Positions 29,187-64,000 of a stretch of 64,000 nt of DNA are shown here, piece by piece; positions within the stretch are counted from its first letter, which is position 1, and each line of letters begins with the position of its first letter. A program made the translations under genes and the position numbers. Source of the DNA: a virus (Duplodnaviria; Caudoviricetes); the IMG/VR virus record IMGVR_UViG_3300028392_002123; one strand, 5' to 3'. The notes beneath the pieces were generated by a model, which was not told the origin of the DNA, made no database searches, and saw only the letters and a list, made by a program, of their open reading frames with translations.

Positions 29187-29537
29187 ATGGATAAAAAATT
29201 GGAAGAAGCACTGGATTTTAGTAACTTTAGATTTACACTTAACACCCGCAAACAAAATCTAAAACTGCGTATGAAAAGTATGCTGACTGTGGGCTATAAC
29301 AACACTATCTTTACAGCGACCATTGAATTAATAAATTTTTCAAAACTGGTACTGGACTCGGGTAATAAAGAATATGTGTTCATCGACGACAACGACAACC
29401 CTGTGATGATCAATGACATCGGCGATTTTCACGCTAGATTGTTGGGAGCATACACTACAGCAGCCAACGAATTTTACGTGGAAAACGAAAAATTAAAAAA
29501 ACTTAGATCTACAAGACAACTAGCAGGAATTAAATGA
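29187..29537 (+). CDS. Conserved hypothetical, possibly a tail-assembly chaperone-like protein
   Basis: LEEALDFSNFRFTL...LTVGYNNTIFTATIELINF...FIDDNDNPVMI; GGAG RBS; position just after the tail genes. Confidence 0.5.
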   Translation: MDKKLEEALDFSNFRFTLNTRKQNLKLRMKSMLTVGYNNTIFTATIELINFSKLVLDSGNKEYVFIDDNDNPVMINDIGDFHARLLGAYTTAANEFYVENEKLKKLRSTRQLAGIK

Positions 29538-30436
29538 TAAAGAAAAAGTTTCCTCGAGGCATTTTGCTGATAGCGTATAACAACAATCAAATTGACTATG
29601 CTAAATTGGCCTTGCTTGCTGCCAAGCAGGCTAAAATGTTTATGAACAACATTCATATCACATTGATGACAGATGAATCTACTCTGGGAAAATTATTGGA
29701 CAATAACAAAGCCGAACATGTCAAAGTATTCGATCATATTATTGTAGAAAAAATTGAACACGAAGCTAACACTCGTGTACATCACGACAGTCCGTGGTAC
29801 GAATTTAGCACACAGTTTAGTAATAAAAACAAGCATACTATCTACGATAATACACCCTATGAACAAACTCTGATGATTGACGTAGACTTTATGATATGTA
29901 ATAATTCTTTTGAACACATATTCAACAGCGACTGTGAACTGGCCATGTACAAGGATGCTATCAGCACAAGAAACTATAAGCCACGTATTTGGGAACAAAA
30001 GTTACATCCTAACGGCATTGACATGTGGTGGAGTACTGCTGTATACTGGCGCAGTGACAGTGAAGAAGCAAGATTATTCTTTAATGTGTGGCAACATGTC
30101 AAAGAAAACTATGACTACTATAAATTCTTATACAAGTTTCCTGGTAAATTGTATAGAACAGACTATGCGGCCAGCATTGCTGTACACTTGATCAACGGGC
30201 AATATAAGAATTCATGGACTGGTCAGTTACCCGGTAAAGTAATGCGTTACAGTGATCAAATTGACGAGCTCTGCCATGTACACAGCAACAGTGATTTTTT
30301 ATTTTTGTGTCCTGATCCTAAAGAACCGTGGCGAGTGACTACATCAAGAATTACAGATGAAAATGTTCATATTATGAATAAACTATCACTGCTACGTCAC
30401 TGGGATCAATTAATGGAATCGGAATCCGCCGAATGA
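29534..30436 (+). CDS. GT-A fold glycosyltransferase-like protein (GT8-like)
   Basis: RGILLIAYNN..IDYAKLA...IYDNTPYEQTLMIDVDFMI with a DxD motif. Confidence 0.65.
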   Translation: MIKKKFPRGILLIAYNNNQIDYAKLALLAAKQAKMFMNNIHITLMTDESTLGKLLDNNKAEHVKVFDHIIVEKIEHEANTRVHHDSPWYEFSTQFSNKNKHTIYDNTPYEQTLMIDVDFMICNNSFEHIFNSDCELAMYKDAISTRNYKPRIWEQKLHPNGIDMWWSTAVYWRSDSEEARLFFNVWQHVKENYDYYKFLYKFPGKLYRTDYAASIAVHLINGQYKNSWTGQLPGKVMRYSDQIDELCHVHSNSDFLFLCPDPKEPWRVTTSRITDENVHIMNKLSLLRHWDQLMESESAE

Positions 30437-31281
30437 AAGAAATTTATATCATACATTGTGAACAATCAGACGATGTACTATCTTCTGAATTACTGGCAGA
30501 ATCTATTCGCAGATTCGATGACAGTCGTGACATCATAATAACTACACCAGTGCCAGCTGTGGAATTTAGTAAAGGCACTAACTTACATTTATATGAAGCT
30601 ACTCCAAATCCCACATTAAATTATTTTAAATCTGCGGTTGATGTTAACTGCGACCGCGCAATATTTTTTAAATCAGATCAAATTTTAACACATTTTAGCA
30701 CCGAGTGTTGGGAAACGCTTAGAAATTTATCTAGTATAGTAACATTAAAAACTAAATTATCTTTTGCAGGCGAAGAGATTAATCCCAAGGTATATTATTT
30801 AGACAGCGTAAATATAGCCAATTTGGGATCTACAAAAAATTTAAATGCAGTCTATTTTGATTTTAGTAAAAATGCAAGACAGCTTCTGGGATTCTGTATT
30901 GATTTTAGCAGTAACTATGATTATAATTCTATACAACAATTTACTCATGCACTTAGAGAAAAGAATGCCACTGTGGCTTTGCCTGCATTTCCAGAATTTA
31001 CTTGGCCTAGTTGGGTTTTTACCTATGTAAGTTTATTATTCGAAGAAGAATTTATAGAGTTTGACTTCTTAGACAACATCGACTTGTCCAAACAGGATTA
31101 TAACATTGAAGATCATATATGGTCAACTCGTAGCTGGCATCAGTTTTTAAGTTACTGGGTAACGGACATTGGCCAATTAAAAATAGAAAATTTCATTCAA
31201 AGTGGCTTGGTTAAATATCAAAATACCAATTGGCTAAACGACATTATATTAGCTAGATTAAAACAAGCCTATGATCAATGA
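30433..31281 (+). CDS. Degenerate glycosyltransferase-like protein
   Basis: LLAESIRRFDDSRDIIIT...RAIFFKSDQIL resembles the upstream GT-like layout but lacks an intact DxD; W-rich C-terminus. Confidence 0.35.
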   Translation: MKEIYIIHCEQSDDVLSSELLAESIRRFDDSRDIIITTPVPAVEFSKGTNLHLYEATPNPTLNYFKSAVDVNCDRAIFFKSDQILTHFSTECWETLRNLSSIVTLKTKLSFAGEEINPKVYYLDSVNIANLGSTKNLNAVYFDFSKNARQLLGFCIDFSSNYDYNSIQQFTHALREKNATVALPAFPEFTWPSWVFTYVSLLFEEEFIEFDFLDNIDLSKQDYNIEDHIWSTRSWHQFLSYWVTDIGQLKIENFIQSGLVKYQNTNWLNDIILARLKQAYDQ

Positions 31282-32275
31282 TGACAACGACTTTGAATTA
31301 ATTACCGAAGATGCAATAGAGAACGCACAAGAAGCGGACTTGTTAGTTCGCGTCGCAGTTACACCTCCTGGTTATTATATTCTGTTTAACAAGGCCACAG
31401 GTAGTATCACAGCTATAAATCCAGTATCGAATACAAACCCTCCCCCAGGTACAGCAGAGCTACATGTTGAACACAGCAACGACCTAGACTCGATATTTTC
31501 TAATAAGTTCAACATTGAAAAGTTAAAAGTAAAATACGATTTACAAAAGAAAATTTACATATTGACAGCAGTAAAGGATTTTTCCGATTTATTTGTCAAG
31601 GAGTTTGTTGTACTGGATATCAAAGATTCCGCAGAATTTTTCATTGATATAAAATTTAATATTGTCAGCAAGGTAGTATATTTTAAACCAAATTTTAAAA
31701 ACTTGAATTTGTATCTTAGCACTAATACTCCTGAGTATGTTTTGGAATTGACCAACAGTAAGATTACATTCTACGTGTTTGACCAAACTAATCCTACGAT
31801 GTTATACGATAGATATGATGTTAACATAGTCGATCTTATTAAAAATGAACATGCGGCATTTAAAGCAGATTGGTTGGATCTAATGAGAACAACTAAATTT
31901 CAAATTTTAACTTCGAATGTGGGATTGGAATACAACATTGTCATTGATCAGCAATATGTCAGGGATCATTTGGACTATGAAATTACTCAACCCACTGTTC
32001 ACCCAGAGTCTCCCACACTACGACTAATTATAACTGATGATTTTTTAGAACTGCAAAGTCTAATAGAAAATCCAGAAAATTTTAAAATTGAAGAAACATT
32101 AAACCTGTATCTACATAAACAAGGCGAACCCGACTTCTTACTGCGAAAGTATGTTATAAATAGAAACGACTTGGTCAATCAAAACAGACTAATATTGGAC
32201 GGCAACGATCTAATAGGAAAAGTTTCTGCGGTGTGCGATTCAAGACATATTAATGTAGAAACTATATATGAGTAA
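31271..32275 (+). CDS. Hypothetical protein
   Basis: 334-aa ORF overlapping both neighbours; no motif recognised. Confidence 0.6.
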   Translation: MINDDNDFELITEDAIENAQEADLLVRVAVTPPGYYILFNKATGSITAINPVSNTNPPPGTAELHVEHSNDLDSIFSNKFNIEKLKVKYDLQKKIYILTAVKDFSDLFVKEFVVLDIKDSAEFFIDIKFNIVSKVVYFKPNFKNLNLYLSTNTPEYVLELTNSKITFYVFDQTNPTMLYDRYDVNIVDLIKNEHAAFKADWLDLMRTTKFQILTSNVGLEYNIVIDQQYVRDHLDYEITQPTVHPESPTLRLIITDDFLELQSLIENPENFKIEETLNLYLHKQGEPDFLLRKYVINRNDLVNQNRLILDGNDLIGKVSAVCDSRHINVETIYE

Positions 32276-33251
32276 ACCAATCCCTATAAACGAATATGAC
32301 ATTGTGTTCATGAGCTATGATGAACCAAATGCAGATTATAATTATTCCAATTTACTGGAAAAAGCTCCATGGGCCAAACGAGTACACGGAGTCTTGGGAT
32401 TCGATGCTTGTCACAAAGCCGCTGCCAGGGCCGCTGAAACAGATAGATTTATCACTGTTGATGCTGACAATATTGTACGCGAAGAATTTTTTAATCTAGA
32501 ACTAGACATGAGTAAAGTGGGCCAGCATGATGTTATCAGCTGGGCAGGAAAAAACTATATCAACGGATTGACCTATGGCAACGGTGGCATTAAGTTTTGG
32601 CCCAAGCATGTAGTTGAATCCATGAAAACACACGAAGTAGCGGAAAATGCAAAAAGCCAGACAGATTTTTGTTGGGACATTTATTATCGTCAAATGAATA
32701 ACATATACAGTGATGTATATGCAAATGGCAGCGCATATCAAGCTTATCGCGGAGGTTTTCGCGAAGGTGTCAAGCTGGGCTTAGAAAGCGGCACAGTTGT
32801 TGATGCTAGACAATTAAAAAATAAAGTCTATGATAGAAATTATAAACGCTTATTGGTATGGGCCACAGTGGGCGCCGACGTGGAAAACGGTCTGTGGAGC
32901 ATGTACGGCACACGATTAGGAATATATCTAACAAACATTAAACGCAGTGAATGGGATTTTACTGCTGTGCGAGATTTTACATGGCATACTAATTATTGGA
33001 ACGAAGAAATTAAATCAAAATTCACAGATGACAACGGAGATGGAATGTGCAATGCCACAGGATGGAAATACAGCACCACCAAGCTGTGGACAGAAATAGT
33101 AAAACTGGGAGACCAGTTAAGAACAGAACTGGGCTTAGAAATCGGAGAGTTGGATCATAATGGCAGTAAGTTTTTTAAAGAAAGCTTTATTAATCCACCT
33201 AGACTAGGCGCATTGGTTCGCGAAGACCAAGTAGATAATACAATAGAATAA
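32268..33251 (+). CDS. Glycosyltransferase-like protein, family A (DEPNAD/DAD), copy 1
   Basis: VFMSYDEPNAD, AKRVHGV.GFD.CHKAAA, FITVDAD, NYINGLTYGNGGIKFW, YRGGFREGVKL. Confidence 0.6.
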   Translation: MSKPIPINEYDIVFMSYDEPNADYNYSNLLEKAPWAKRVHGVLGFDACHKAAARAAETDRFITVDADNIVREEFFNLELDMSKVGQHDVISWAGKNYINGLTYGNGGIKFWPKHVVESMKTHEVAENAKSQTDFCWDIYYRQMNNIYSDVYANGSAYQAYRGGFREGVKLGLESGTVVDARQLKNKVYDRNYKRLLVWATVGADVENGLWSMYGTRLGIYLTNIKRSEWDFTAVRDFTWHTNYWNEEIKSKFTDDNGDGMCNATGWKYSTTKLWTEIVKLGDQLRTELGLEIGELDHNGSKFFKESFINPPRLGALVREDQVDNTIE

Positions 33252-33254
33252 TAT

Positions 33255-34649
33255 ATGAGCTTTCATGAATTCAGGGACGAGCTCAATGCCGTCAGCAGTA
33301 GTTTTTGTATTGCCAAATGGAAACAGGTAACTCTGCATCTCCAAACAGGTCATACACACAGTTGTCACCATCCTACCACACACAAAGTCCCGTTAACAGA
33401 AGTCTTGGTCAATCCCAGTGCTTTGCATAATACAAAATATAAAAAACTACAGCGTAAAAAAATGCTCACAGGATCTCGTCCCAGCGAATGTGACTATTGT
33501 TGGCGTGTGGAAGACAGTGGTGCCGATGTACTCAGTGACCGTGTCTATAAAAGTTCAGATGTATGGGCAAAGAAATATTTAAAAGAATGTACAGATAATC
33601 CCTGGGACTTTGATTTTGCACCCAGCTATTTAGAAGTTAGTTTTAGTAGCGTGTGTAATTTTAAATGTAGCTATTGCAGTCCCGAAGTCAGCAGTAAATG
33701 GATGGAAGAAAGCGAACGTTTTGGTCCTTATCCCACTAGCAGAAAATTCGGCGACATAAGCTGGTTAAAGGATGCGGGAAAATTTCCTATTCCCCACAGC
33801 GAATATAATCCCTATGTGGATGCCTTTTGGGCGTGGTGGCCCGACATCTATCACAGTCTAGAACATTTTAGAGTCACAGGTGGTGAACCTTTGTTGGCCA
33901 AGGACACATTTAAAGTCTTGGATTATATCATTGAAAATCCGAATCCAGAATTAGATCTCAGTATAAACAGCAATATGTGTGTACCTGACGCAGTACTGGA
34001 CAAGTTCATTTCTAAAATTAAAATTATCTGCGGTGAAAAGAAAATCAAAAAATTTAAAATCTTTACCAGCTGTGACGGCCATGGCCGGGCCGCTGAATAT
34101 ATCAGAGACGGCTTGGACTATGAACAATGGAAACGTAATATTCAAAAAGTATTGGATCAAGTACCTGAATGTACATTCACCATAATGAGCACATACAATG
34201 CATTGAGTATCAGTACATACTTAGACTTTTTAAAAGACGTAGTTGAAATCAAACGCAAGTACGGCGGTGCAGATGGTAGGAACAGTCCTTTCATTCTAGA
34301 TACACCTTACCTAAGACATCCCGAGCATCAAGCAATTTTTATACTGCCTAATCGTTGGGCTGACAAGATCAAAGAACAAGTGGACTATGTATTTGAAAAT
34401 ATAGAAAATCCCACGGATCCCAATAGAACTAATCAGGGTTTTTATCCCTGGGAAGCTGATAAATTCAAACGCATACATGAATTAATGCTGTCCAAAGAAG
34501 AAATGGAATTTAAAGTAACACAGGCACAAAAAGACTTTGTGGCATTTGTCGACGAACACGATCGTAGACGCGGCACTAACTTTTCCGAAACGTTTCCTGA
34601 GTATATGGATCTATATTACTTTTGGAAAAATAATCCTATAACAACATGA
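33255..34649 (+). CDS. Radical SAM protein with N-terminal auxiliary Cys cluster
   Basis: CNFKCSYC, VTGGEPLL, SINSN; N-terminal FCIAKW...SCHHP...CDYCW. Confidence 0.9.
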   Translation: MSFHEFRDELNAVSSSFCIAKWKQVTLHLQTGHTHSCHHPTTHKVPLTEVLVNPSALHNTKYKKLQRKKMLTGSRPSECDYCWRVEDSGADVLSDRVYKSSDVWAKKYLKECTDNPWDFDFAPSYLEVSFSSVCNFKCSYCSPEVSSKWMEESERFGPYPTSRKFGDISWLKDAGKFPIPHSEYNPYVDAFWAWWPDIYHSLEHFRVTGGEPLLAKDTFKVLDYIIENPNPELDLSINSNMCVPDAVLDKFISKIKIICGEKKIKKFKIFTSCDGHGRAAEYIRDGLDYEQWKRNIQKVLDQVPECTFTIMSTYNALSISTYLDFLKDVVEIKRKYGGADGRNSPFILDTPYLRHPEHQAIFILPNRWADKIKEQVDYVFENIENPTDPNRTNQGFYPWEADKFKRIHELMLSKEEMEFKVTQAQKDFVAFVDEHDRRRGTNFSETFPEYMDLYYFWKNNPITT

Positions 34650-35407
34650 ACCTGCAAGACAGAATAGCTATTTGCTTTTCTGGGCAAATAAGAACCGGAG
34701 TTGAAAACAGCATCAACTTATTGCCTTATATAGGAGATTTAAGAAATTCTGTTGATATCTTTATTCATACATGGGATATTGAAACAGAAAGTCCATGGTC
34801 GGAAAAAAATAAGGGAGATGTTGGCGTAGCTAATCTAAGACGATATGTTGACAAACAAGCATTTGAAAAATTAAATGGAATTTACACTCCATTGGAACTA
34901 AAAATAGATAATTTTGACATTTATCAACAATGTCATCTGCGTCGTGTAATTGCCCGTGGAGAAACCATCGTGGCGCAGATTCCCATGTTTCAAAGTATAT
35001 GGGAATCTAATCAACTAAAATTATCTCATGAAAAATTATCTAACAGCAAATATGGTTATGTGTTTCGTATGAGAATGGACGTTAATTTTGGTCCTGGTAG
35101 AACTCTATTAGAAGATCTACAATTTGTTTCAAATAAGAGAGATTTATTTTATGTTGTAGATTTTAGCAATAAATTGCCCGAAGCTATAGAAGATTTATGT
35201 TGGCTTAGTAGCAGTAAAATCATGGACCGGGCCTGCAATTTTATACTAGAAAGAGAAACCACACAGACAATGAATCACATTGATTGGCAACATCATATGA
35301 GCAGATATCTTGCAGAGGAAGGTATAAAAGTTCGCACCTTCAAAAATAATACAATATCAATTGTTAGAAATGATTTTATAGTTAAAAACGCTGACGAAGA
35401 AATTTAA
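34646..35407 (+). CDS. Glycosyltransferase-like protein, family B (SGQ.R...R.D), copy 1
   Basis: IAICFSGQIRT, DIFIHTWD, YGYVFRMRMD. Confidence 0.5.
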   Translation: MNLQDRIAICFSGQIRTGVENSINLLPYIGDLRNSVDIFIHTWDIETESPWSEKNKGDVGVANLRRYVDKQAFEKLNGIYTPLELKIDNFDIYQQCHLRRVIARGETIVAQIPMFQSIWESNQLKLSHEKLSNSKYGYVFRMRMDVNFGPGRTLLEDLQFVSNKRDLFYVVDFSNKLPEAIEDLCWLSSSKIMDRACNFILERETTQTMNHIDWQHHMSRYLAEEGIKVRTFKNNTISIVRNDFIVKNADEEI

Positions 35408-35410
35408 ATA
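35405..35410 (+). promoter_or_regulatory. TAAATA motif
   Basis: Overlaps the upstream stop, 5 nt before ATG 35416. Confidence 0.35.
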
Positions 35411-35415
35411 TTAAT

Positions 35416-36291
35416 ATGAAAATAGCATTTTGTTTTAGTGGACAGCCAAGAACATGGGATAAGTGTTACCCAACTTGGAAACGATTCGAAAAGAAACTTT
35501 GTAATCTAACCGGTGCAGATCAAGTTGATTATTTTTGTCACGCTTGGGATTTCAATACTCCTCCACATGCAGTACTGGCCGCTGATGACGGCCCAAGCAC
35601 AGATGTAGTCGATGATTATCTAACTGTAAAAGGTGTTAAACTATCATATACAGAAACACAGTCGTTTCTCAATACTATCAAGCCCGTTGGATATATATTC
35701 GAAGATGAAGAACACAGTAAAAGTCGTATCAAAGAAATAAGACTGCAAGCAGAAGCCCATGTCAACGAGCATGGAAAGAATACACTAGAATGGATTGCCA
35801 GTCAATTTTACGGTGTTATGTATGCGGCACAGCTTATGAAAAAACACGAAGTAGAAAATAATTTTAGCTATGACATGGTGTTTCGTATGCGCTATGATTT
35901 ATTCTTAGACGATCACCAGCTGGACTGGTTCTTTGATGATCGTAGTAACGATTTTCAAATACCTAAATTTAATCATTTTTATAGCTGTCATACTAGCAAA
36001 GAAAAAAATCAATTTCCATTTCATAGAATGGGAGACATATTTTGGTATGCCGATGGTATAACATTTAGTAGAATCTGTGATTTCTATAGATGGTTACCAG
36101 TACTGGGCAGTAAGTGTTTCAACAATGGCCGCGTGGGAACAGAACATGCTCTATACTTTTATGCTAAGATGTTGCGTATGCAAGTAGTGCCTATTAGTAT
36201 AGATCCAAAAATATATCGACAAAAAGATTATCTAGATAGAAAACGTCAAGCAGGCCTGGAAGAGAGTTTAGGTGGACATGAGCTTATTTGA
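35416..36291 (+). CDS. Glycosyltransferase-like protein, family B, copy 2
   Basis: IAFCFSGQPRT, DYFCHAWD, YDMVFRMRYD, MGDIFWY. Confidence 0.5.
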   Translation: MKIAFCFSGQPRTWDKCYPTWKRFEKKLCNLTGADQVDYFCHAWDFNTPPHAVLAADDGPSTDVVDDYLTVKGVKLSYTETQSFLNTIKPVGYIFEDEEHSKSRIKEIRLQAEAHVNEHGKNTLEWIASQFYGVMYAAQLMKKHEVENNFSYDMVFRMRYDLFLDDHQLDWFFDDRSNDFQIPKFNHFYSCHTSKEKNQFPFHRMGDIFWYADGITFSRICDFYRWLPVLGSKCFNNGRVGTEHALYFYAKMLRMQVVPISIDPKIYRQKDYLDRKRQAGLEESLGGHELI

Positions 36292-38956: not shown

Positions 38957-39573
38957 AGATTTGGGTCTACGGTTGTAGTTTTAGTGAGCCTTTTCAAATT
39001 CAACAAGGCGGAGCCGAGTGGGACGAGCATGGGTATAGAATAATAACCTCCGACTATTGGGGAACACATCTTGCCAAAAAACTTAATAGAACCTGTGTTA
39101 CTAGAAGTCTAAGCGGTGTGGGATGGAACTATATAACTGAAAAAATAGACGAAGATATCATGGATTGGAGTAAAGATGATATTATCATTATTAGTCCTAG
39201 TTTTTTCAGTAGAGTAACATTTGAAGAATTAATAAAACGTGACAGTCAAAGTGAACTAGCAGGACAATTCTTAGAATGGGATCAAGTTGCCAAATATAAT
39301 GAACTACGCTGGGCTAGAAAGGTAGACACGCTACAATATTTCAATTATAATGTCTATACTTGGGTAGTAGATACTCCTAGATTTTCAGCATTGCCAAAGA
39401 ATTTAATTAAAGCAGAACAACACATTTCTTGGAAATCCTGGATGGATGAGAATAAACAATATTGGCAGGATCCTACTACTAATAAATATCCCCTGGGAGA
39501 TTGGCACTTTAACGAACTAGGCCATAGTGCAGTAGCAGAGATAATGTATAATTTTATATGTCAACAGCAATAA
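38953..39573 (+). CDS. SGNH/GDSL-like protein
   Basis: VYGCSFSE, WGTHLAKKL, DWHFNELGH. Confidence 0.6.
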   Translation: MKIWVYGCSFSEPFQIQQGGAEWDEHGYRIITSDYWGTHLAKKLNRTCVTRSLSGVGWNYITEKIDEDIMDWSKDDIIIISPSFFSRVTFEELIKRDSQSELAGQFLEWDQVAKYNELRWARKVDTLQYFNYNVYTWVVDTPRFSALPKNLIKAEQHISWKSWMDENKQYWQDPTTNKYPLGDWHFNELGHSAVAEIMYNFICQQQ

Positions 39574-49219: not shown

Positions 49220-49220
49220 T

Positions 49221-52443: not shown

Positions 52444-52449
52444 ATACAT

Positions 52450-56016: not shown

Positions 56017-57323
56017 CTGCCACGTTTTGTCCTATTCCATGGAATTTCCAAGCAATAAGAGCAAATGGTGACATAAGGATTTGCTGTCAAGCCAACACGA
56101 CTAAAAATCAAGGTGTTATACGCAAAGAAGATGGTACAGCATTTAATGCTGGCCGCGACGAGCTGGAACAAGCACGTAATGCCACACTGATGTCGGAAGT
56201 TAGAAAAAACATGCTAGCTGGTCGTTGGAGTGACGAATGTGGACGTTGCCAACGAGAAGAAGAAAATGGTCTAGTCAGCCGTCGTAGCTATGAAAATGAG
56301 CAGTGGAAATTTGACATAGAACGTGCTAGACAATTAACAAAAGATGACGGGAGTATAGACACCAAAGACTTTCCTGTGGTGTACTATGACCTGCGCTTTG
56401 GAAATTTCTGTAATTTAAAATGTCGTATGTGTGGACCCACAGACAGTAACGCTTGGTATGACGACTGGATTGAATTAACCGGTACAAATAAATTTAAAGA
56501 TACCAGCGGCATGATTACTATTACAAAAGTCGACAAAGGTTACCATGTGCCGGAATTTGAATGGTACAACTATGAACCATTCTGGACACAATTAGAACAA
56601 AATATGCAGAACATCGAACATGTATATTTTGCCGGCGGCGAGCCTATGTTAATTGAACGTCATTACGATTTTCTAGAACGTTGTGTAGAAGCAGGTGCTA
56701 GTAAAAACATGATCATTGAATACAACACTAACATGAGTACCTTGCCCAGTCGTGTTGTGAATCTATGGACACAGTTCAAACAAGTACGCATTGGTGCCAG
56801 CGTGGATGGCATGGGCGCAGTCTTAGAATATCAACGTAATCCCGCTAAATGGGAAAAGACTTTGACTAATCTTCAAAGAGTCGACGAACTGCCTCCAAAC
56901 ATTATCAGTTGGCTAGCATTTACAGTCACAGCTTATAATGTATTACACATGGTTGATTTTATGAAATGGAAGTTAACTGAAAGCGGATTTAAGAGAATAA
57001 ACAGTTCCTATAGAAGACCTATAGTAACATATCATGTTGCTCATCATCCTAAACATTTAAACATTAGAGTGTTGCCCAAAGAATTCAAACAAACAGTGGT
57101 CGACAAGTATACAGAATTTTTAGCATGGGTGGAGGAACATAAATTCGAACAGTATGTTGTCAAACATGCCAAAGAAATTGTAAACGGTGTTATAAGTTAT
57201 ATGAACAGTGAAGATTATAATCCTGAGCACTGGGATGAATTCGTTAAGTATACAACAGATTTAGATAAAATACGCAGAGAGAACTTAATAACAGTTGAGC
57301 CAGAATTTAAGAAATATATATGA
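56013..57323 (+). CDS. Radical SAM protein with N-terminal auxiliary Cys cluster (TTG start)
   Basis: CNLKCRMC, FAGGEPM, YNTN; N-terminal FCPIPW...ICCQ...CGRCQ. Confidence 0.9.
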   Translation: MTATFCPIPWNFQAIRANGDIRICCQANTTKNQGVIRKEDGTAFNAGRDELEQARNATLMSEVRKNMLAGRWSDECGRCQREEENGLVSRRSYENEQWKFDIERARQLTKDDGSIDTKDFPVVYYDLRFGNFCNLKCRMCGPTDSNAWYDDWIELTGTNKFKDTSGMITITKVDKGYHVPEFEWYNYEPFWTQLEQNMQNIEHVYFAGGEPMLIERHYDFLERCVEAGASKNMIIEYNTNMSTLPSRVVNLWTQFKQVRIGASVDGMGAVLEYQRNPAKWEKTLTNLQRVDELPPNIISWLAFTVTAYNVLHMVDFMKWKLTESGFKRINSSYRRPIVTYHVAHHPKHLNIRVLPKEFKQTVVDKYTEFLAWVEEHKFEQYVVKHAKEIVNGVISYMNSEDYNPEHWDEFVKYTTDLDKIRRENLITVEPEFKKYI

Positions 57324-58045
57324 ACAATTTATTACACGAATACGACACATTAGATCTATTAGACGGTAGTGTATTTCAAGTTACATGGGACTTGGGTCGT
57401 CGTTGTAATTACGACTGCTCCTATTGTCCTGTACATAGGCATGATAATCATAGTCCACACGCTACCTTAGAAGAATTAAAAAAGAACGCAGACTTTGTTT
57501 TTAAGTACATTGGCCTGTACATGAAGTATAGGAATTACAAAGAAGCCAGTATTAGTTTTACCGGAGGTGAACCCACTGTTAATCCTAATTTTATTCCCTT
57601 TATTAAATATCTCAATGAGACTTATCAAGCAAATTATAAAGATGATTATCTGTGTACATTTGCCTTGACCAGCAATGGTGCAATGAGCGAAAAGATGGCC
57701 AAGGCTGTATTAGAAAATTTTAGTCATATCACTATCAGTTATCACACAGAAGCAGATCAAACACTAAAACAACAAGCATTAGATCGTATTGTGCAAATAT
57801 TCGAAGGTGGCCCTGCTAACTTATGTACAATTAGTATCAATGTTATGTTTCATGCTCAATACTTCGACGAGTGTATAGAAGTCTGTAACAAATTAGATGC
57901 CGCAGGAGTTACTTATGTGCCGCGTGTTATTGGAGAAGATCCTGATAGTCGTCCTAGTTTTGCCCATAAATATTCTGATGAACAATTAGCTTGGATGAAA
58001 GACTATTGGGATCGTAAAAATAAGAAAGTAAACGAAAATGTCTGA
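57320..58045 (+). CDS. Radical SAM core domain without its C-terminal Fe-S domain
   Basis: WDLGRRCNYDCSYC, FTGGEPT, TSNG, ITISYH; ends before the Cys-rich tail seen in paralog 62498. Confidence 0.85.
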   Translation: MNNLLHEYDTLDLLDGSVFQVTWDLGRRCNYDCSYCPVHRHDNHSPHATLEELKKNADFVFKYIGLYMKYRNYKEASISFTGGEPTVNPNFIPFIKYLNETYQANYKDDYLCTFALTSNGAMSEKMAKAVLENFSHITISYHTEADQTLKQQALDRIVQIFEGGPANLCTISINVMFHAQYFDECIEVCNKLDAAGVTYVPRVIGEDPDSRPSFAHKYSDEQLAWMKDYWDRKNKKVNENV

Positions 58046-58475
58046 TGAAAAGAAACTAGGTATGAAAATTGGCCGTCCATGTTGTGGCGGCCGCACAATG
58101 TGTTTTAGCAAGGGCGAGGAAAGTATTCGCGGAACCTTTAGTGGCAAGCGCGAATTCAAAGGTTGGCATTGTAGTGTTAACTGGTTTTTCTTTCATATAG
58201 AACAGCAAACTGACAAAGTGTTTCATCATCAAACATGCCAAGCACAATTTGGAGAGACTCGCGGACCTATAGGTACACTATCGGAAAGCGACAAGATTCT
58301 TGAAGAATTGGAACGTAATCTTAGAGAAGAAACAATGCCAACAATTATCTGTCCAAAAAAGACCTGCGGTTGTGGTATGTGTGCTCCTAAGAGCATGGAC
58401 AAAGAAGAATACAAACGTGTATTGTTCCAGCACATAGACAGTAGTCCCTTTAACAATTCATTGTCCTTAAAATGA
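58038..58475 (+). CDS. Stand-alone Cys-rich SPASM-like Fe-S domain
   Basis: RPCCGGRTMC, FKGWHC, HHQTC, ICPKKTCGCGMC; 8-nt overlap with the upstream radical SAM core. Confidence 0.65.
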   Translation: MSDEKKLGMKIGRPCCGGRTMCFSKGEESIRGTFSGKREFKGWHCSVNWFFFHIEQQTDKVFHHQTCQAQFGETRGPIGTLSESDKILEELERNLREETMPTIICPKKTCGCGMCAPKSMDKEEYKRVLFQHIDSSPFNNSLSLK

Positions 58476-60403
58476 AAATAGGCATCTTTGGTGGCGAGTA
58501 TGTACATAAGCATACCGCAGAAAACTTTACACCTAGTTGGGTACAAATACTATCTAAAAAATATGATGTAACACTAATAGGTAGCATAGACATAGACATG
58601 TTGTCTCTGTATACAACATTTGTCGATCGTGCCAGAGATTTTGATCAAGTTATTTTTGTTGCACCTGCTGATAACAAGTTGTCAAACTCAAATTCAGATG
58701 CTGTAAGAGATGCTATAGTGGCATTAGAAAAAGCACATTCAGTGACTATTTCATCAAGCGATTTCATAAAACATTTATTTGAAAAAGAAGCAAATAAGTT
58801 TACAAGAAAATCTTTGTTAGATTTAATCATAGCTGATATAAAAGATTTTCGCCCTGATACTATAATAATTAATTCTCATTTTTATAATGATAATTTAGGC
58901 TTAAATGCCATTAAAAAATTAGAAGAAAAATCATGGGGTTTAGATCCTTGGCCCGCAGATACAAAATTAGGCCACGATTCTAGGCAATGCTACTTAACTA
59001 AAGAAAACAACGAGATACTGGCCGCAGAAGTAGAGTCTTGGTTAACTGGCACAAAAGTTTTTATAGATATTAACAAGTATGTAGTGCCTACTGTGGAATC
59101 TATAGAATATTTTTTAACTCACGAAGCAAGAAAACTAAGAAGACAGCAGTATAAGAATTTTGAATCCAGTGCAACATACTGCTATTATCCTTTCAAAGAA
59201 ATAGCAATCAAAGAGTACAGGGGTACAGAACTCTTGGCCTTTTGGCCGTGTTGCATGATGGGAAATCAAATCAATGATCGTAAAACATTCAATGTATTAG
59301 ATGTAACGAATCCTGGACAATATACGCCACAGGAAATGTACGATCATCCTAGAATGCAACTATTAAGATCGAATAAACTATTAGGCATACGAGATAAAGC
59401 CTGTGAAACATGTTGGGATCAGGAAAATAGAGGATTGGATTCTTTTAGAGTAATGTCAAAAGAACCTGCAGACATTGAAGACGGCCTAACAGAAATCAAT
59501 GATTTGTACATGATAGATATGACTGCCAGTAATATATGCAATCTCAGATGCAGAATGTGTACTCCCAGTGCCAGCAATTTATTAATGATGGACTACAAAT
59601 ATTTTGAAGAAAACAATCTTATCGAAGATGTTAACAAATCTCTTAGAGGAAGATTCTATCACAGCGTACCATATAAAGCAACTGAAAGCAAACAATGGTC
59701 TTGGCTAATGGAAAATACAGATCGTATACGTGTGCTCAAGGCCAGCGGCGGCGAGCCACTCTATGACGGCAAGGTAATTCAATTATTACAACGTTATATA
59801 GAAACCGGTTCGGCACAGCAGACTAGATTATCTTTTCATACTAATGCAACTCAATTCAATGACGCTGTCATTGATATATTGAGTAAGTTTAAAAGCAACG
59901 AACATACTTTTAGTATAGATGGCGCAGATAAAGTATATGAGTACATTAGATATCCTGCTACCTTTGATGAACTAGAAACTAGTGTAAACAACTATATAAC
60001 AAAACTAGATAACATTGCAAATACCATGCATTTTAATTGTGTGGTTAGTTCTTTGAATGTTCTTAATCTAAACAGTTTATTTGACTGGGCGGAAAAGATT
60101 TCTGATAATCCGTTTGTCAATCTCAGCGAATTGTATCCTCCTGACAGAGGTACAGCAGTAAAACATTTACCAAAGCATTTATTAGAGTTGGCTCGACAAC
60201 GCCTTGAACCTTATATAAACACACCAAAGAATATGCCTAACCTAAGTGTTATCAATATGATTACATTATTGAATACTGCTATTGATAACAATCAAGAAAA
60301 CAAAGAACTTATGTTAAAAGAAATAACTTTGTTTGATGAATCTAGAAATCAAAATTTTAAAGATTTTCTAGATCCTGCACTAGTGGAGTGGCTATGCAGG
60401 TAA
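58472..60403 (+). CDS. Fusion of a degenerate SGNH-like domain and a radical SAM protein
   Basis: The N-terminus aligns by eye with ORF 60394 (IGIFGG vs IGIFGDS; CYLTKENNEILA vs CHMSKENNEIFA). Then YCYYPF...WPCC...CETCW, CNLRCRMC and ASGGEPL. Confidence 0.85.
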   Translation: MKIGIFGGEYVHKHTAENFTPSWVQILSKKYDVTLIGSIDIDMLSLYTTFVDRARDFDQVIFVAPADNKLSNSNSDAVRDAIVALEKAHSVTISSSDFIKHLFEKEANKFTRKSLLDLIIADIKDFRPDTIIINSHFYNDNLGLNAIKKLEEKSWGLDPWPADTKLGHDSRQCYLTKENNEILAAEVESWLTGTKVFIDINKYVVPTVESIEYFLTHEARKLRRQQYKNFESSATYCYYPFKEIAIKEYRGTELLAFWPCCMMGNQINDRKTFNVLDVTNPGQYTPQEMYDHPRMQLLRSNKLLGIRDKACETCWDQENRGLDSFRVMSKEPADIEDGLTEINDLYMIDMTASNICNLRCRMCTPSASNLLMMDYKYFEENNLIEDVNKSLRGRFYHSVPYKATESKQWSWLMENTDRIRVLKASGGEPLYDGKVIQLLQRYIETGSAQQTRLSFHTNATQFNDAVIDILSKFKSNEHTFSIDGADKVYEYIRYPATFDELETSVNNYITKLDNIANTMHFNCVVSSLNVLNLNSLFDWAEKISDNPFVNLSELYPPDRGTAVKHLPKHLLELARQRLEPYINTPKNMPNLSVINMITLLNTAIDNNQENKELMLKEITLFDESRNQNFKDFLDPALVEWLCR

Positions 60404-61137
60404 TCGGTATTTTTGGAGACAGTTGGGCTAGCCATACCATGCCCAATACACCGGGAATAGGTTGGCAACAAATTGTCAAAGAGCACTACGATGGTCCTGA
60501 CTATTTCGTGGACAACTATGCTCGGCCTGGAAGTAGTTTATATTTTTCTTATGAAAATTTTTTAGTGCATCACCATAAATTTGACAAAATTATTTTTGTT
60601 GTAACTTCATCCGGAAGATTGCTTCTCCCTTACGGATGTGAAGTATGTAATGATGGTCTTACAGATAATGTTACACGACATGTTAATACATATTTTACTG
60701 CTAATAGTTTATTAAAAAAGTTGCCCGATGATCCAAAATATGATCGAGATAGAAAAATTCTAGAAGCCGCTGTAGCTTATTTTACATACATATATGATAT
60801 AAACGAACACAGACATTACAGTAAATTAATGATAGAAGAAATAAGAAGAATACGACCAGATGCTCTTATTGTTCCAATCACAGTTGATGAAAGAATACCA
60901 GGATTTGAACATCCATGCTTGCATGAAATTATCAATGAAGTCGAATTAACCTACTGGGGTATTACCGGCGATGACATAGAATCCATGGTAGAACTTAGAA
61001 GCTGTCATATGAGCAAAGAGAACAACGAAATATTTGCAAAAAAAATAATTACGTGGATTGATACCGGACATTGGACTCCGTTGAGTGTCAATGAGTTTGT
61101 AAATCCTTTGTTACCATGGAAAGAATATTTTAAATGA
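60394..61137 (+). CDS. SGNH/GDSL-like protein (start revised to ATG 60394)
   Basis: IGIFGDSWA, NYARPGSSL, RSCHMSKENN; GGAG RBS at 60385-60388. Confidence 0.65.
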   Translation: MQVIGIFGDSWASHTMPNTPGIGWQQIVKEHYDGPDYFVDNYARPGSSLYFSYENFLVHHHKFDKIIFVVTSSGRLLLPYGCEVCNDGLTDNVTRHVNTYFTANSLLKKLPDDPKYDRDRKILEAAVAYFTYIYDINEHRHYSKLMIEEIRRIRPDALIVPITVDERIPGFEHPCLHEIINEVELTYWGITGDDIESMVELRSCHMSKENNEIFAKKIITWIDTGHWTPLSVNEFVNPLLPWKEYFK

Positions 61138-62285
61138 AACACTATTGTCCTTTACCTTTTAATCATCTTGCTATTAGACCCAATGGTAATGTGTATCCTT
61201 GCTGTTTTTTCCGTTGGGAAGAAACCCCTGCAGATATGACATTAGACTATCCCGATTTGTTTAATTCGCATCCTTTTATGAAACAGATTAGAGAAGATCT
61301 GCGAGAGGACAAACCCATTGCTGGATGCAGTAAATGCTATGAAGCCGAAGAGCTAACGGGCAAGAGTATGCGATTAGATTACCTAGCTGACACTAAATTA
61401 GGATTGAGTACAACTCCACCAGAAAAAGAAGAATTAAAGTATGTAGACCTATCATTGAGCAATGTCTGTAATAATAAATGTAGGATGTGTAGTTATGAGC
61501 TGAGTACAAGTTGGTACAGCGACACTAAAAAATTAGGAGTTGAAATTCCACGCGGTTTGATTAAAAACGGTAATCCTTTAGAGGGTTATGATTTATCTAA
61601 ACTAACTTATATTAAGATGATTGGCGGTGAGCCTTTAATGGAACAAGAAAAGTTTATCGACATACTCAAACAATGTAATTTGCCTGAATTAACTATTTTA
61701 ATTACTACTAACACTACAGTAAGGCCAAATGCAGAGCTACAGGCTTTGTTAGATCAATGTAAGCGTATAAAGTGGAATTTTAGTGTAGACGCATATGGCA
61801 CACTAAATGATTTCCTACGTAAAGGCAGTAAATGGCAGGAAGTTGCTGATAACCTAGATTGGTATATCAATCGTTATGGCAAGGATACAAACGTGCATGC
61901 CGTGGTCAGCATCTATAATATTAATACTTTTTACGAACTTAATACATATATTAAAACAAGACATCCAAAGAGCTATATCTCATTTGTAACTGCCGATGGG
62001 CCGAGTTGGATGATGATTGCTAATTTGCCTGAACGTGTCAAAGAGACAATAAAAAATAAATTAGAAATAGAAAATGCCAAACTACCTATTCCTAACTTTA
62101 ATGTTATCATTGAAGATATGATGAAACCCGGGGATTTTTATTCTTTTGTTCACATGGACAAGCGATTAAATCTAATCAGAGAAGAACATTGGATCGAGCA
62201 TAATCCAGAACTATATGAACTGATCAAAGATGAATTTGATCCATTCTACGCATCAGTGGATCCTACGGAACCTATCTATAAATAA
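61134..62285 (+). CDS. Radical SAM protein with N-terminal auxiliary Cys cluster
   Basis: CNNKCRMC, MIGGEPL, TTN; N-terminal YCPLPF...YPCC...CSKCY. Confidence 0.9.
   Translation: MKHYCPLPFNHLAIRPNGNVYPCCFFRWEETPADMTLDYPDLFNSHPFMKQIREDLREDKPIAGCSKCYEAEELTGKSMRLDYLADTKLGLSTTPPEKEELKYVDLSLSNVCNNKCRMCSYELSTSWYSDTKKLGVEIPRGLIKNGNPLEGYDLSKLTYIKMIGGEPLMEQEKFIDILKQCNLPELTILITTNTTVRPNAELQALLDQCKRIKWNFSVDAYGTLNDFLRKGSKWQEVADNLDWYINRYGKDTNVHAVVSIYNINTFYELNTYIKTRHPKSYISFVTADGPSWMMIANLPERVKETIKNKLEIENAKLPIPNFNVIIEDMMKPGDFYSFVHMDKRLNLIREEHWIEHNPELYELIKDEFDPFYASVDPTEPIYK
62277..62284 (+). promoter_or_regulatory. TATAAATA, exact T4-type late promoter consensus
   Basis: Overlaps the stop of the upstream radical SAM gene, 5 nt before ATG 62290. 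Confidence 0.5.
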
Positions 62286-62289
62286 GTTC

Positions 62290-62520
62290 ATGGACATTAA
62301 AGATTTACCATTAAGAACATTACAGTTAGAAGCAGCCAGAGTTATCAGCTCTATGGAAGCAACCAACGATAACATACATAAATTTAACAAGGCAAGCAGA
62401 CATAATAGTCAAGGTTGGTACATAGCCGCTGTCGAATGGTACGTAAAAGAATACGGCGGCATGCCCAGCGAAACAGGACCGGGAAAAGACATTAAGTTTG
62501 TCTATGAACAAGATGAGTGA
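62290..62520 (+). CDS. Small hypothetical protein (76 aa; start revised to ATG 62290)
   Basis: In-frame ATG just after the upstream stop and TATAAATA; overlaps the next gene. Confidence 0.65.
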   Translation: MDIKDLPLRTLQLEAARVISSMEATNDNIHKFNKASRHNSQGWYIAAVEWYVKEYGGMPSETGPGKDIKFVYEQDE

Positions 62521-63679
62521 TTTAAAAACCAGTGAATACGACTTTACTAAGATTCCCTACAGTGACTTAGTAAGAGTTGGACAAAGAACAATGCTGTACC
62601 GAGACATGTTCAGTGTGTCTTGGCTATTAGGACGTTATTGTAATTACCGCTGTAGCTATTGCTGGCCCTATGCTCGCAGTGATACAAAAGATCACAGACC
62701 CACTCCTTTAATGTTACACACAGTGGATGAAATTAAACGACAAGCTCGCGAGCGCGGATTTAATAGTTTTCACTTTAGCCTAAGTGGCGGAGAGCCTACA
62801 TTCCATCCGGCTTACATTGATATTTTAAATCATTTAAACAATGATGTACATAATACAAACTATACCAGCGTACATATGACATCAAACATGAGCCGTCCAT
62901 TAAAGTGGTTTGAAACACAGTACGTACCAGCAGTTAAGAACTTTCATCGTGCTAGTATTACTGCCAGTTGTCATCGTGAGCATGTTGACACAGATAAAAA
63001 GGTCGAAGAGTTTGCTGACAAGTTGGTGCTATGTCAAGAATACGACACGCAGATAACTATTAACATGGTCATGGTACCGGAACAGTTCAATGAGATCTAT
63101 GACTTGGCATTATACTTTCATAACAGAGGCATCAACGTAACACTCAAACCGCAGAGCGATCCAACTGCTAGTCGTGTAGTAGATGGTTATACTCCTGAGA
63201 TGTTGGCTAAGTTACATAATGGTATGCCACAACGTGCATTCACAGAAGTTAAAGCCGCAAGAGCAGACTTGGTTAAACGTCCCAAGCCTACGTATATGAT
63301 TGACAGAGCAGATCCTGGATTCAAGCAACAAGCAGGTGTTGATGCACACTACCAAGTGGAGTTCATTGACAAAGAAGGCAAGCCGTGGTTCATGGATCAA
63401 GCTGAGCGTTTTAATGCATTTAACTTTAATAACTTTAATCAGTGGGAATGTAGTAGTGGCTATCGAAGTATCATTATTCGTGAACCAGATGGCACAGTAA
63501 AGCGTAGTTATAGCTGTAGCGAAGTTCCATTGGGACACATTGAAACAGGCTTTAAGTTATACGACAAGCCCATGCCCTGCGGTGGAACTAGCTGTGTAAG
63601 TAGTGCTGACAGTAAAATTCCTAAACGTGCGCCTGGAACAAAGTTACCGTTGTTCCCTGGGGATAAAACCTATGAATGA
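62498..63679 (+). CDS. Radical SAM protein with C-terminal Cys-rich domain (ATG 62504 or 62513 likely)
   Basis: WLLGRYCNYRCSYC, LSGGEPT, TSN, ITASCH; C-terminal FNQWECSSG...SYSC...MPCGGTSC. Confidence 0.9.
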   Translation: MSMNKMSDLKTSEYDFTKIPYSDLVRVGQRTMLYRDMFSVSWLLGRYCNYRCSYCWPYARSDTKDHRPTPLMLHTVDEIKRQARERGFNSFHFSLSGGEPTFHPAYIDILNHLNNDVHNTNYTSVHMTSNMSRPLKWFETQYVPAVKNFHRASITASCHREHVDTDKKVEEFADKLVLCQEYDTQITINMVMVPEQFNEIYDLALYFHNRGINVTLKPQSDPTASRVVDGYTPEMLAKLHNGMPQRAFTEVKAARADLVKRPKPTYMIDRADPGFKQQAGVDAHYQVEFIDKEGKPWFMDQAERFNAFNFNNFNQWECSSGYRSIIIREPDGTVKRSYSCSEVPLGHIETGFKLYDKPMPCGGTSCVSSADSKIPKRAPGTKLPLFPGDKTYE

Positions 63680-64000
63680 AATAGAATTATATAACTGTCT
63701 AACTAGATTTGGTCAACTATATGAATTGAGTATTAAAGACGACGTCTTTGATTTATTAAACAATATAAAAAAATTCGACTCTGATTGGAAAGTTTATAAT
63801 CCAAGAAAGAAAATTAATAGACAGGGTCTAAGCATTACCAGCATCGATGGTGGACTGTCTGGTATACCAGACTTGGACAGCGTATATGAATATAATAAAA
63901 CAAACAATTTACTGTTAACAGAAAGTTCTTTTAATAAAAAAACACCGGTGTATCAATACTGTGCTAAGTGGCTGGACTTCTTAGGAGATAACATTGGGCG
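63672..64000 (+). CDS. Conserved phage protein, possibly Fe(II)/2OG oxygenase-like, 3' truncated
   Basis: I translated it from ATG 63672 and found it open to the window end: MNEIELYNC...WKVYNPRKKINRQGLSITSIDGGLSGIPDLDSVYEYN. It is not in the supplied track; ATG overlaps the upstream TGA. Confidence 0.55.
   Translation, partial: MNEIELYNCLTRFGQLYELSIKDDVFDLLNNIKKFDSDWKVYNPRKKINRQGLSITSIDGGLSGIPDLDSVYEYNKTNNLLLTESSFNKKTPVYQYCAKWLDFLGDNIG

Follow-up and report, generated by a model that had tools for sequence, protein, structure and literature searches.

Here we analysed a 64,000-nt stretch of DNA from a virus of the Caudoviricetes (IMG/VR record IMGVR_UViG_3300028392_002123; hereafter the window), which lies within the 340,358-bp JGI metagenome contig 3300010157 Ga0114964_10000001. 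Behind its tail-fibre genes, the window carries an island of packed plus-strand genes (29187–64000). We propose, with a probability of about one half, that this island encodes a wholly cytoplasmic pathway in which unusual sugars are made, remodelled by radical chemistry, decorated and transferred, perhaps onto the virion. The two parts of this proposal differ in strength. A sugar or glycan pathway, whose sugar substrate we infer, seems highly likely; a virion protein as its acceptor in the phage is more tentative, and we hold it at slightly less than even odds. As read from the genes, the finding would be virus-encoded glycosylation with possibly new radical sugar chemistry. An initial annotation of the window had seen here a toolkit for building and decorating glycans, with chemistry beyond ordinary glycosylation, and the evidence on the radical S-adenosylmethionine (SAM), glycosyltransferase (GT), SGNH-like, carbamoyltransferase and sugar-module genes bears this out.

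Gene content of the island

The same annotation had described about 39 packed plus-strand genes that start 52 nt after the last structural gene and run off the window, and the list of open reading frames (ORFs) largely agrees. Thirty-eight plus-strand ORFs of at least 80 aa and one of 63 aa (45132–45323) make up the 39 genes, nearly all overlapping or abutting, and the array runs on for ~860 nt past the window end with two genes, g38, which is completed there, and one more. The 52-nt spacer lies between the end of u15 (29134) and the start of g01 (29187); the spacing stands, and the preceding gene, which encodes a subtilase-domain protein, is at most a putative structural gene. Since G+C content is flat across the 29-kb boundary, the island is not a recent foreign insert. 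No membrane segment or signal peptide was predicted in any of the 38 island ORFs of at least 80 aa in the window, and Pfam matched no lipid-carrier transferase, flippase or polymerase family among the island proteins. Nor did it match any replication or DNA-binding family, in line with the claim that such genes are missing from the block.

The ten radical SAM proteins counted initially were confirmed by PF04055, which scored above its gathering cut-off (29.5 bits) in exactly ten island genes (29.7–50.9 bits; gene starts at 33255, 50186, 51355, 52450, 53840, 56013, 57320, 58472, 61134 and 62498); one more gene of this kind lies outside the island (5796–7085, minus strand). In the lists below, core and accessory refer to conservation among related phages, as set out in the next section.

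33255–34649, + strand: g06, N-terminal-twitch radical SAM enzyme (NF033640, 348.5 bits)
50186–52440, + strand: g25 (core) and g26, radical SAM paralogues of a second type (PF04055; 27% mutual identity)
52450–55171, + strand: g27 (core; best conserved of all) and g28, both N-terminal-twitch radical SAM enzymes (g27, NF033640, 433.2 bits)
56013–57323, + strand: g30, N-terminal-twitch radical SAM enzyme, core (PF04055; 34% identical to g27)
57320–58475, + strand: g31 and g32, split radical SAM enzyme with a 241-aa core and a 145-aa Cys-rich tail (PF04055, 46 bits)
58472–60403, + strand: g33, SGNH-like N-terminus fused to an N-terminal-twitch radical SAM enzyme (NF033640, 235 bits, residues 234–633)
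61134–62285, + strand: g35, N-terminal-twitch radical SAM enzyme (paralogy; SPASM-like match before PF04055)
62498–63679, + strand: g37, radical SAM enzyme of a third type, core (PF04055, 50.9 bits)

Three of these proteins exceed the cut-off (170) of NF033640, the twitch domain-containing radical SAM family N_Twi_rSAM: g06 (348.5 bits), g27 (433.2 bits) and g33 (235.2 bits). The genes g28, g30 and g35, together with the minus-strand gene at 5796–7085, were placed in this group by BLAST paralogy alone, and g25, g26, g31 and g37 scored 29–49 bits and are non-members. In the alignment of the N-twitch proteins (A2), the CxxxCxxC motif (C146, C150, C153) is invariant, as are four cysteines that precede the radical SAM core (C9, C27, C90 and C93). 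In g35, a Pfam SPASM-like match at residues 5–69 stands N-terminal of PF04055. The nearest solved relatives of the NF033640 family by profile search were viperin, SkfB, BlsE, MoaA and BtrN, with weak matches (E 6e-8 to 0.2) confined to the radical SAM core. Viperin, BlsE, MoaA and BtrN act on nucleotides or sugars, and SkfB is a peptide maturase.

Because most of the GT-like genes had no Pfam match, two paralogue families were folded from alignments of their relatives. Of the roughly ten GT-like proteins reported initially, nine are supported as GT-A-type, in three families: Family A with four members, Family B with four, and g02 as a lead. Two genes, g03 (30433) and g04 (31271), showed no hhalign relation to the GT families and fall outside this set.

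32268–33251, + strand: g05, Family A GT-A-like protein, core (AlphaFold 2, Foldseek/VIA, invariant DxD)
46811–49219, + strand: g21 (core), g22 and g23, Family A paralogues (BLAST paralogy to g05; alignment A1)
34646–37180, + strand: g07, g08 and g09, Family B GT-A-like proteins, accessory (AlphaFold 2 model of g08, AFDB, VIA)
39558–40331, + strand: g13, divergent Family B member (hhalign against Family B 96.9%, E 1.6e-10)
29534–30436, + strand: g02, GT8/glycogenin-like GT-A candidate (Atlas lead; invariant DxD)
30433–32275, + strand: g03 and g04, accessory (no Pfam match; no hhalign relation to GT families; close relatives only)

Family A comprises g05 (32268), g21 (46811), g22 (47523) and g23 (48530). 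The AlphaFold 2 model of g05 (pLDDT 91.4) adopts a GT-A fold and its Foldseek and VIA matches are mostly GT-A enzymes, including SunS, TarP, WrtF and PBCV-1 A064R (Z 9–10.8); the best VIA match (Z 10.8) aligns 142 residues at 3.0 Å. The DxD residues D65 and D67 are invariant in 70 sequences. Family B comprises g07 (34646), g08 (35416), g09 (36272) and g13 (39558). The AlphaFold 2 model of g08 (pLDDT 90) is also of the GT-A fold, with TM scores of 0.55–0.63 to WavE-type and other GT clusters in AFDB and VIA Z scores of 10–11 (193 residues aligned at 3.6 Å); R159 and D161 are nearly invariant and there is no clear DxD. For g02, Atlas feature matches to GT8 and Mannosyl_trans3 clusters score 0.96, and D116 and D118 are invariant in its family; its PDB profile search matched glycogenin(-1) alone and weakly (E 0.8–1.4), and Pfam gave no match. 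PDB sequence-profile searches for Family A, Family B, g24, g36 and g01 returned nothing meaningful.

The remaining enzymes include those that could supply and decorate sugars, and several small proteins stand among them.

37125–39573, + strand: g10, g11 and g12, SGNH-like proteins (DUF6071; PF19547, 33 and 55 bits in two of them; GDS/GCS motif)
40234–41139, + strand: g14, SGNH-like protein (GDS motif; groups with the SGNH set in relatives)
60388–61137, + strand: g34, SGNH-like protein (GDS motif; paralogue of the g33 N-terminus, 26% identity)
41130–45128, + strand: g15 to g19, sugar module (Pfam, NCBIfam)
45132–45323, + strand: 63-aa Lys/Glu-rich ORF that fills the sole apparent gap in the array (read from the sequence)
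45319–46791, + strand: g20, NodU/CmcH/TobZ-type O-carbamoyltransferase (PF16861, 181.7 bits; PF02543, 130.2 bits)
49170–50186, + strand: g24, class I SAM methyltransferase-like protein, core (C-terminal residues 132–338; Atlas feature and structure matches)
55168–56016, + strand: g29, PP-loop ATP-pyrophosphatase-like protein (SGGADS motif, SGGxDS)
29187–29537, + strand: g01, conserved 116-aa protein, in every case first behind the fibre genes (alignment A4; synteny)
62290–62520, + strand: g36, 76-aa protein (alignment A3 with 14 invariant columns; gene called in the locus L001, which reaches beyond the window)
63672–64000, + strand: g38, 210 aa, cut by the window end (weak Asp/Asn-hydroxylase-like cupin match)

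Five SGNH-like proteins and one fused copy had been reported. DUF6071 scores above its cut-off for two of them, those starting at 37125 (g10) and 38111 (g11); g12, g14, g34 and the N-terminus of g33 are tied to the set by the GDS/GCS motif and by paralogy, which points to the same membership. The SGNH start motif reads GDS in g10, g14 and g34 and GCS in g11 and g12, G9, S11 and H258 are nearly invariant in the family alignment, and the family profile weakly matched the xylan esterase Axe2C in the PDB (E 0.017). Pfam and NCBIfam, Atlas and motif evidence likewise support the carbamoyltransferase, the methyltransferase-like protein, the PP-loop-motif protein and the five-gene sugar module of the initial annotation. 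The module consists of a cupin of the phosphomannose isomerase type, a fusion of an NTP-transferase with an APH-type kinase, and SnoaL-like, shikimate-dehydrogenase-like and class II aldolase-like proteins. Its last three genes (43098–45128; the third GatZ/class II aldolase-like) adjoin the kinase and nucleotidyltransferase fusion, a hint that the activated precursor is carbocyclic or an unusual keto-sugar and not a standard NDP-hexose. The carbamoyltransferase g20 is not NodU proper (145.8 bits against an equivalog cut-off of 1000). The sole hidden Markov model (HMM) match of g29 was a weak one to TilS_N (19.4 bits against a cut-off of 93.6), with no match to QueC. In relatives the gene for the small protein g36 adjoins that of g25, and we take g36 as a probable accessory subunit rather than a precursor peptide; as a candidate precursor of a ribosomally synthesized and post-translationally modified peptide (RiPP) or carrier protein it was rejected, being conserved over its full length and having no Ser attachment motif. 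After g38 there is one more plus-strand gene (183 aa, short-chain dehydrogenase/reductase-like) and then the strand switches.

Conservation in jumbo phages and counterparts in bacteria

The first 29 kb of the window code for a lysozyme-bearing baseplate hub, for wedge and tail-fibre-like proteins and for a fibre-like protein of 2991 aa. Because of these genes, and because a wedge protein is ~35% identical to those of Atu_ph07, SCTP-2 and PA5oct, we take the source to be an uncultured jumbo myophage; megablast of the structural region against cultured phages gave zero matches. The island is widespread in this lineage. The g27 protein has more than 5000 database relatives, the best 120 of which are 71–87% identical, and a g27 search of IMG/VR matched 166 stretches, with 70–90% identity in 80 phage loci. 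All window proteins were mapped onto 115 relative loci, which defined a core (g01, g02, g05, (g06), g21, g24, g36, g25–g30, g31/32, (g33), g35 and g37) that always stands behind u13/u14-type fibre genes, and a set of accessory genes (g03, g04, g07–g20, g22 and g23). The core occupies this position in more than 100 jumbo-phage contigs. In a complete 383-kb relative (G002) the order of hub, wedge, big fibre, fibres, g01, g02 and g05 onward is kept, and in a more distant contig (L113) the island again lies downstream of tail-fibre genes. The initial view that the island is attached to the tail genes therefore holds across jumbo-phage contigs: it travels with fibre genes, not with replication genes.

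Identity to the complete relative is 76% for g37, 70% for g27, 59% for g25 and 57% for g30, as against 33% for the wedge and 29% for the hub. The number of N-twitch model matches varies from 7 to 17 per relative, with at most ~14 above the cut-off. The largest expansion seen here is that of IMGVR_UViG_3300005941_000003 (G001), with 17 matches, ~14 of them above the cut-off, around ~152–206 kb, and 16 within ~54 kb. Several genes are fused in relatives. The genes g05, g21, an additional part X and g24 occur as single GT-GT-methyltransferase proteins of 1077–1127 aa, and g05–g21, g28–g29 (radical SAM and PP-loop) and g31–g32 fusions are also found, the last as a single gene of 383–435 aa in many relatives and in Bdellovibrionota (e.g., G678). 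Pfam matched nothing in nine long fusion ORFs of relatives, and their parts were identified by BLAST mapping.

A minimal island was found directly behind the fibre genes of a cultured phage, Ralstonia phage RsoM2USA (343.8 kb). Its ORF354 and ORF353 correspond to g01 and g02, ORF350 and ORF349 resemble g05 (45%) and g06 (41%), ORF348 is the counterpart of g21, and ORF347 that of the C-terminal portion of g24. Upstream of it, ORF356 and ORF361 were found in virions by mass spectrometry (PMC8504454). At a second site, a DNA ligase gene is followed by genes for an SGNH-like protein, an N-twitch radical SAM enzyme, two further SGNH-like proteins and a carbamoyltransferase 47% identical to g20. The two modules are separate in RsoM2USA and merged in the window phage.

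Counterparts of the core also exist in bacteria. NF033640 scored above its cut-off in 79 of 301 sampled Bdellovibrionota genomes and 4 of 401 Bacteroidota genomes, and in none of 14 control genomes. Three Bdellovibrionota loci, on contigs of 0.9–2.9 Mb, carry orthologues of the phage core, with identities of 62% for g27, 58–64% for g37, 43–46% for g25, 37–49% for g30, 45–50% for g31/32 (fused), 38% for g05, 34–37% for g21 and 26–31% for g24. Neither g01, nor g02, nor any phage structural homologue was found in the three loci, and the g02 family was detected, weakly, in 1 of the 301 genomes; g01 and g02 thus appear to be phage-specific. Family A GTs occur in 18 of the 301 genomes, all 18 of them NF033640-positive, and often adjoin the g27 orthologue. 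In a contig from a Bdellovibrionales metagenome-assembled genome (MAG), a g37–g25–g27 trio stands beside an NDP-sugar epimerase/dehydratase, an Asn-synthase-type amidotransferase, GT2 enzymes and an Acyl_transf_3-SGNH (OafA-like) protein, a make-up that by its predicted products is of the surface-polysaccharide type. This match is not a mis-binned phage contig, given the three further loci on 0.9–2.9-Mb contigs and the 79 positive genomes.

As the core also lies in Bdellovibrionota chromosomes, away from any phage structural genes, the pathway as such is not specific to virions. In the g27 tree, the phage clade (support 96/99) is apart from the bacterial sequences, and the direction of transfer is not readable from it. 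The g27 and g37 proteins are ~60% identical between jumbo phages and predatory bacteria (L156–L161), each group forming its own clade, and it is possible that some phages of the lineage infect Bdellovibrionota or that genes were exchanged with them long ago.

In Bacteroidota, the radical SAM loci contain a g20-like carbamoyltransferase, GDSL proteins, PhyH oxygenases, a polysaccharide deacetylase and a GT11-like protein. One tailoring-rich cluster (L141/L142; G086:C2, ~1.21–1.23 Mb) combines a pair of N-twitch-like radical SAM genes with five PhyH-type oxygenases in tandem; a WelO5-like halogenase, a methyltransferase, a carbamoyltransferase and a reductive-dehalogenase-like Fe-S protein are also encoded there.

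Proposed pathway and alternative explanations

Four lines of evidence favour a sugar pathway. First, radical SAM enzymes partner with sugar-acting enzymes in three independent settings: the SGNH, radical SAM and carbamoyltransferase genes of RsoM2USA, the Bacteroidota loci and the Bdellovibrionales locus. Second, fusions couple the functions (GT-GT-methyltransferase, radical SAM with PP-loop, and SGNH with radical SAM in g33). Third, the core is highly conserved; its 57–76% identity to the complete relative, against 29–33% for wedge and hub, is the pattern expected for enzymes that act on a conserved small substrate. Fourth, the radical SAM enzymes show a weak likeness to viperin, BlsE, MoaA and BtrN. 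In the pathway that we propose, the activated sugar would come from the accessory module g15–g19 or from host NDP-sugars, and the conserved radical SAM set (g25, g27, g30, g31/32 and g37) would rebuild its skeleton, probably on a small nucleotide-linked substrate. Variable paralogues, with the SGNH-like, carbamoyl, methyl and PP-loop (amidation-type) enzymes, would add lineage-specific decorations, and the GT-A enzymes (g05, g21, their paralogues and Family B) would assemble the glycan. The acceptor would most likely be a virion protein at the tail-fibre or baseplate periphery, on which the phage-only g01 and the GT8-like g02 may initiate the chain, and the host-recognition apparatus would thereby bear a variable coat of glycan.

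A virion acceptor is favoured because the position behind the fibre genes is kept over deep divergence (more than 100 contigs, the complete relative, L113 and RsoM2USA), because no membrane, lipid-carrier or export component was matched in the island, and because the phage-only g01 and g02 sit at the fibre boundary. It is also favoured because the GT-GT-methyltransferase fusion resembles PBCV-1 A064R, and Family A resembles SunS and A064R, which are protein- or peptide-glycosylating GT-A enzymes. Soluble enzymes with g01 and g02 at the fibre boundary fit a direct cytoplasmic glycosylation of phage proteins.

Several points weigh against this proposal. The fibre adjacency may be synteny inherited within one large lineage and not a functional link, and the GT8 label of g02 is a lead (E ~0.8). 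In Bdellovibrionota the core works without a virion, at least once in a surface-polysaccharide context, which, judged by neighbouring genes, favours a lipid-linked or envelope acceptor there. The NCBIfam side-matches of the radical SAM genes include many peptide maturases, and radical SAM enzymes with auxiliary clusters commonly modify peptides too. Finally, similar gene sets of pelagimyophages were published as modifying the host O-chain (PMC7029224).

The alternative that survives best, although we consider it rather unlikely, is that the island remodels the host envelope, altering lipopolysaccharide (LPS), capsule or another surface glycan during a long infection, so that superinfecting phages are excluded or progeny are kept from sticking to debris. 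The GTs would then act on lipid-linked intermediates at the inner membrane face, and export of the product would fall to the host. The orthologous core in Bdellovibrionota, once in a locus of the surface-polysaccharide type, speaks for it, as do the resemblance of Family B to WavE-type LPS-core GTs, the fact that GT8 enzymes are typically LPS-core enzymes, and the published O-chain reading of the cassettes of GT and radical SAM genes that pelagimyophages carry in their 'host recognition cluster' (PMC7029224). However, none of the 38 ORFs has a predicted membrane segment or signal peptide, and Pfam matched no Gtr-type, Oac-type, Wzx/Wzy or phosphoglycosyl-transferase family; by membrane prediction and Pfam, the island has no membrane-embedded component of the kind that characterizes GtrABC/Oac seroconversion modules. 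Moreover, the position is kept across a lineage that includes a Ralstonia phage, and one island would thus need to serve differing host glycans, and the bacterial loci lack counterparts of g01 and g02, the phage-specific pair.

It is improbable that the radical SAM enzymes modify tail-fibre or other virion proteins directly, in the manner of RiPP maturases (cross-links, epimerisation, methylation), with glycosylation being secondary. The auxiliary-cluster architecture, the weak NCBIfam side-matches to CcpM, PapB and SkfB, the very large fibre proteins next door and the weak Asp/Asn-hydroxylase-like match in g38 would suit such a role. However, no precursor-like peptide was found, g36 and g01 being conserved over their full length, and no RRE or PqqD family was matched. 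The core radical SAM proteins are 57–76% conserved whereas structural proteins are at ~30%, the same enzymes occur in three bacterial loci with no fibre gene detected nearby, and they are fused or linked with SGNH-like enzymes and carbamoyltransferases, which act on sugar hydroxyls.

We give just as little weight to a diffusible small molecule, such as an aminoglycoside-, cyclitol- or nucleoside-like product directed against the host or competitors. Carbamoyltransferases of this family and twitch radical SAM enzymes (BtrN, BlsE) are characteristic of the pathways to aminoglycoside and nucleoside antibiotics, the shikimate-dehydrogenase-like and SnoaL-like genes hint that an intermediate is carbocyclic, and in one Bacteroidota locus five PhyH oxygenases and a WelO5-like halogenase accompany the radical SAM enzymes. 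However, nine GT-like genes far exceed the need of such a pathway, Pfam matched no transporter, resistance or scaffold synthase genes, and the linkage to fibre genes is conserved.

Finally, DNA hypermodification, with bases of the phage genome as the targets of glycosylation or other decoration, is very improbable: phage GTs and some radical SAM enzymes do act in such pathways (PMC12619734) and ThyX lies just beyond the island, but no TGT/DpdA match was found in five island-bearing relatives, including the complete 383-kb genome, Pfam matched none of the kinase, pyrophosphorylase and DNA-binding families of known thymidine pathways, and the island goes with fibre genes rather than replication genes. 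As candidates for QueC, QueE and QueD, g29, g31 and g32 were rejected, as they have no HMM support (g29 and g31 do not score as QueC or QueE) and the relatives lack DpdA; on this evidence, a link to deazaguanine DNA modification is unlikely.

From a biological perspective, the g25, g27, g30 and g37 families have no assigned reaction and count, within a widespread lineage of aquatic phages, among the proteins of highest abundance and conservation. Should the radical SAM enzymes use sugars as substrates, their radical chemistry would be new for carbohydrates. A product deposited on tail fibres would mean that large environmental phages build their own complex, variable glycans on the apparatus for host recognition, with effects on adsorption, host range and resistance to proteases and defences. 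The core shared with predatory bacteria offers a second, genetically tractable setting, and because a cultured phage, RsoM2USA, carries the minimal version, the question is open to direct testing. We can also speculate, though we find it doubtful, that jumbo phages and Bdellovibrionota, which are unrelated predators, share an expandable radical-SAM 'sugar diversification engine' that places new, radically remodelled, carbamoylated, acylated and methylated sugars on prey-contacting structures, the variable paralogues writing an arms-race glycan code. Were this true, the sugars would be displayed on phage fibres and on the predator surface.

Flanking genes and comparison with known systems

Several genes around the island deserve mention.

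25242–26168, + strand: u14, tail-fibre-like protein (PHROG tail fibre and virion structural matches; weak Peptidase_G2 intramolecular-chaperone domain)
26165–29134, + strand: u15, 989-aa protein with subtilase and InlB B-repeat, last gene before the island (PF00082, 101 bits; PF18998)
5796–7085, − strand: eleventh radical SAM gene, an N-terminal-twitch paralogue outside the island (BLAST paralogy to g27, g30 and g06; PHROG radical SAM match)

Genes like u14 stand directly upstream of g01, the start of the island, in relatives. A subtilase (Peptidase_S8) with an InlB-type B-repeat is an odd end for a tail-fibre module, and u15 may be a fibre-associated protease. On the minus strand, the eleventh N-twitch radical SAM gene lies near a gene for an ATP-dependent DNA ligase (5796–7085 and 9084–10418), a ligase and radical SAM neighbourhood that is conserved in RsoM2USA. 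An HNH endonuclease gene (11110–11721) is located between the minus-strand block and the baseplate wedge genes. After the island, minus-strand genes begin, with ThyX among them (gene calls on L001 beyond the window); besides ThyX, L001 13713–21152 encodes a PhyH oxygenase and a DUF2201/AAA pair of the VWA-interacting type. The T4 late-promoter word TATAAATA was found twice against 8.7 expected and is not enriched. Sigma-70 promoter and terminator scans stayed at chance level and revealed no unit boundary, with the exception of a modest promoter-like excess at 31–51 kb and a modest terminator-like excess in L001.

Our literature search found no paper describing the island in jumbo phages; similar gene sets are mentioned in passing. 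The moraphage and boreal jumbophage papers were considered as descriptions of it and set aside, as the island of this lineage is absent from them. The closest accounts are those of pelagimyophages and cyanomyophages, in which a 'host recognition cluster' forms a large variable region by the tail fibres with GTs and radical SAM cassettes (PMC7029224), and of a T4-like marine genome with 12 radical SAM genes (PMC5332604). These phages are T4-like, of ~150–180 kb, and the papers list the genes and interpret them as modifying the host O-chain; they describe neither the enzyme families and their fusions nor a counterpart in Bdellovibrionota or a cultured model.

Among enzymes with known reactions, the likeness to BtrN, BlsE, MoaA and viperin makes an oxidation, decarboxylation, dehydration or rearrangement of a sugar or nucleotide the plausible chemistry of the radical SAM set. 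In contrast to these twitch/SPASM enzymes, in which the auxiliary cluster domain is C-terminal, that of the island enzymes is N-terminal. The island members share the N-terminal cysteines and CxxxCxxC with NF033640, a computationally defined family whose members have no assigned reaction.

Virus-encoded glycosylation of virions has precedents. In mycobacteriophages Che8, Corndog and Myrna, phage GTs encoded beside structural genes decorate virion proteins (Freeman et al. 2023, as presented in PMC12619734); by that description, with which we compare the island, these systems have few GTs and no radical SAM expansion. The chlorovirus-type system of PBCV-1 (A064R and partners) differs in having no radical SAM, SGNH or carbamoyl enzymes and in having a known acceptor, the major capsid protein, whereas the acceptor of the island is a prediction. 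As identity to A064R is just 8–18%, the resemblance is one of fold and logic rather than family membership. Like the island, PBCV-1 relies on virus-encoded, soluble cytoplasmic GT-A enzymes with no host lipid-linked route. A064R domain 1 is among the structural matches of both Family A and Family B, and A064R joins two GT domains and a methyltransferase domain, the same order in which relatives of the window phage fuse g05, g21 and g24.

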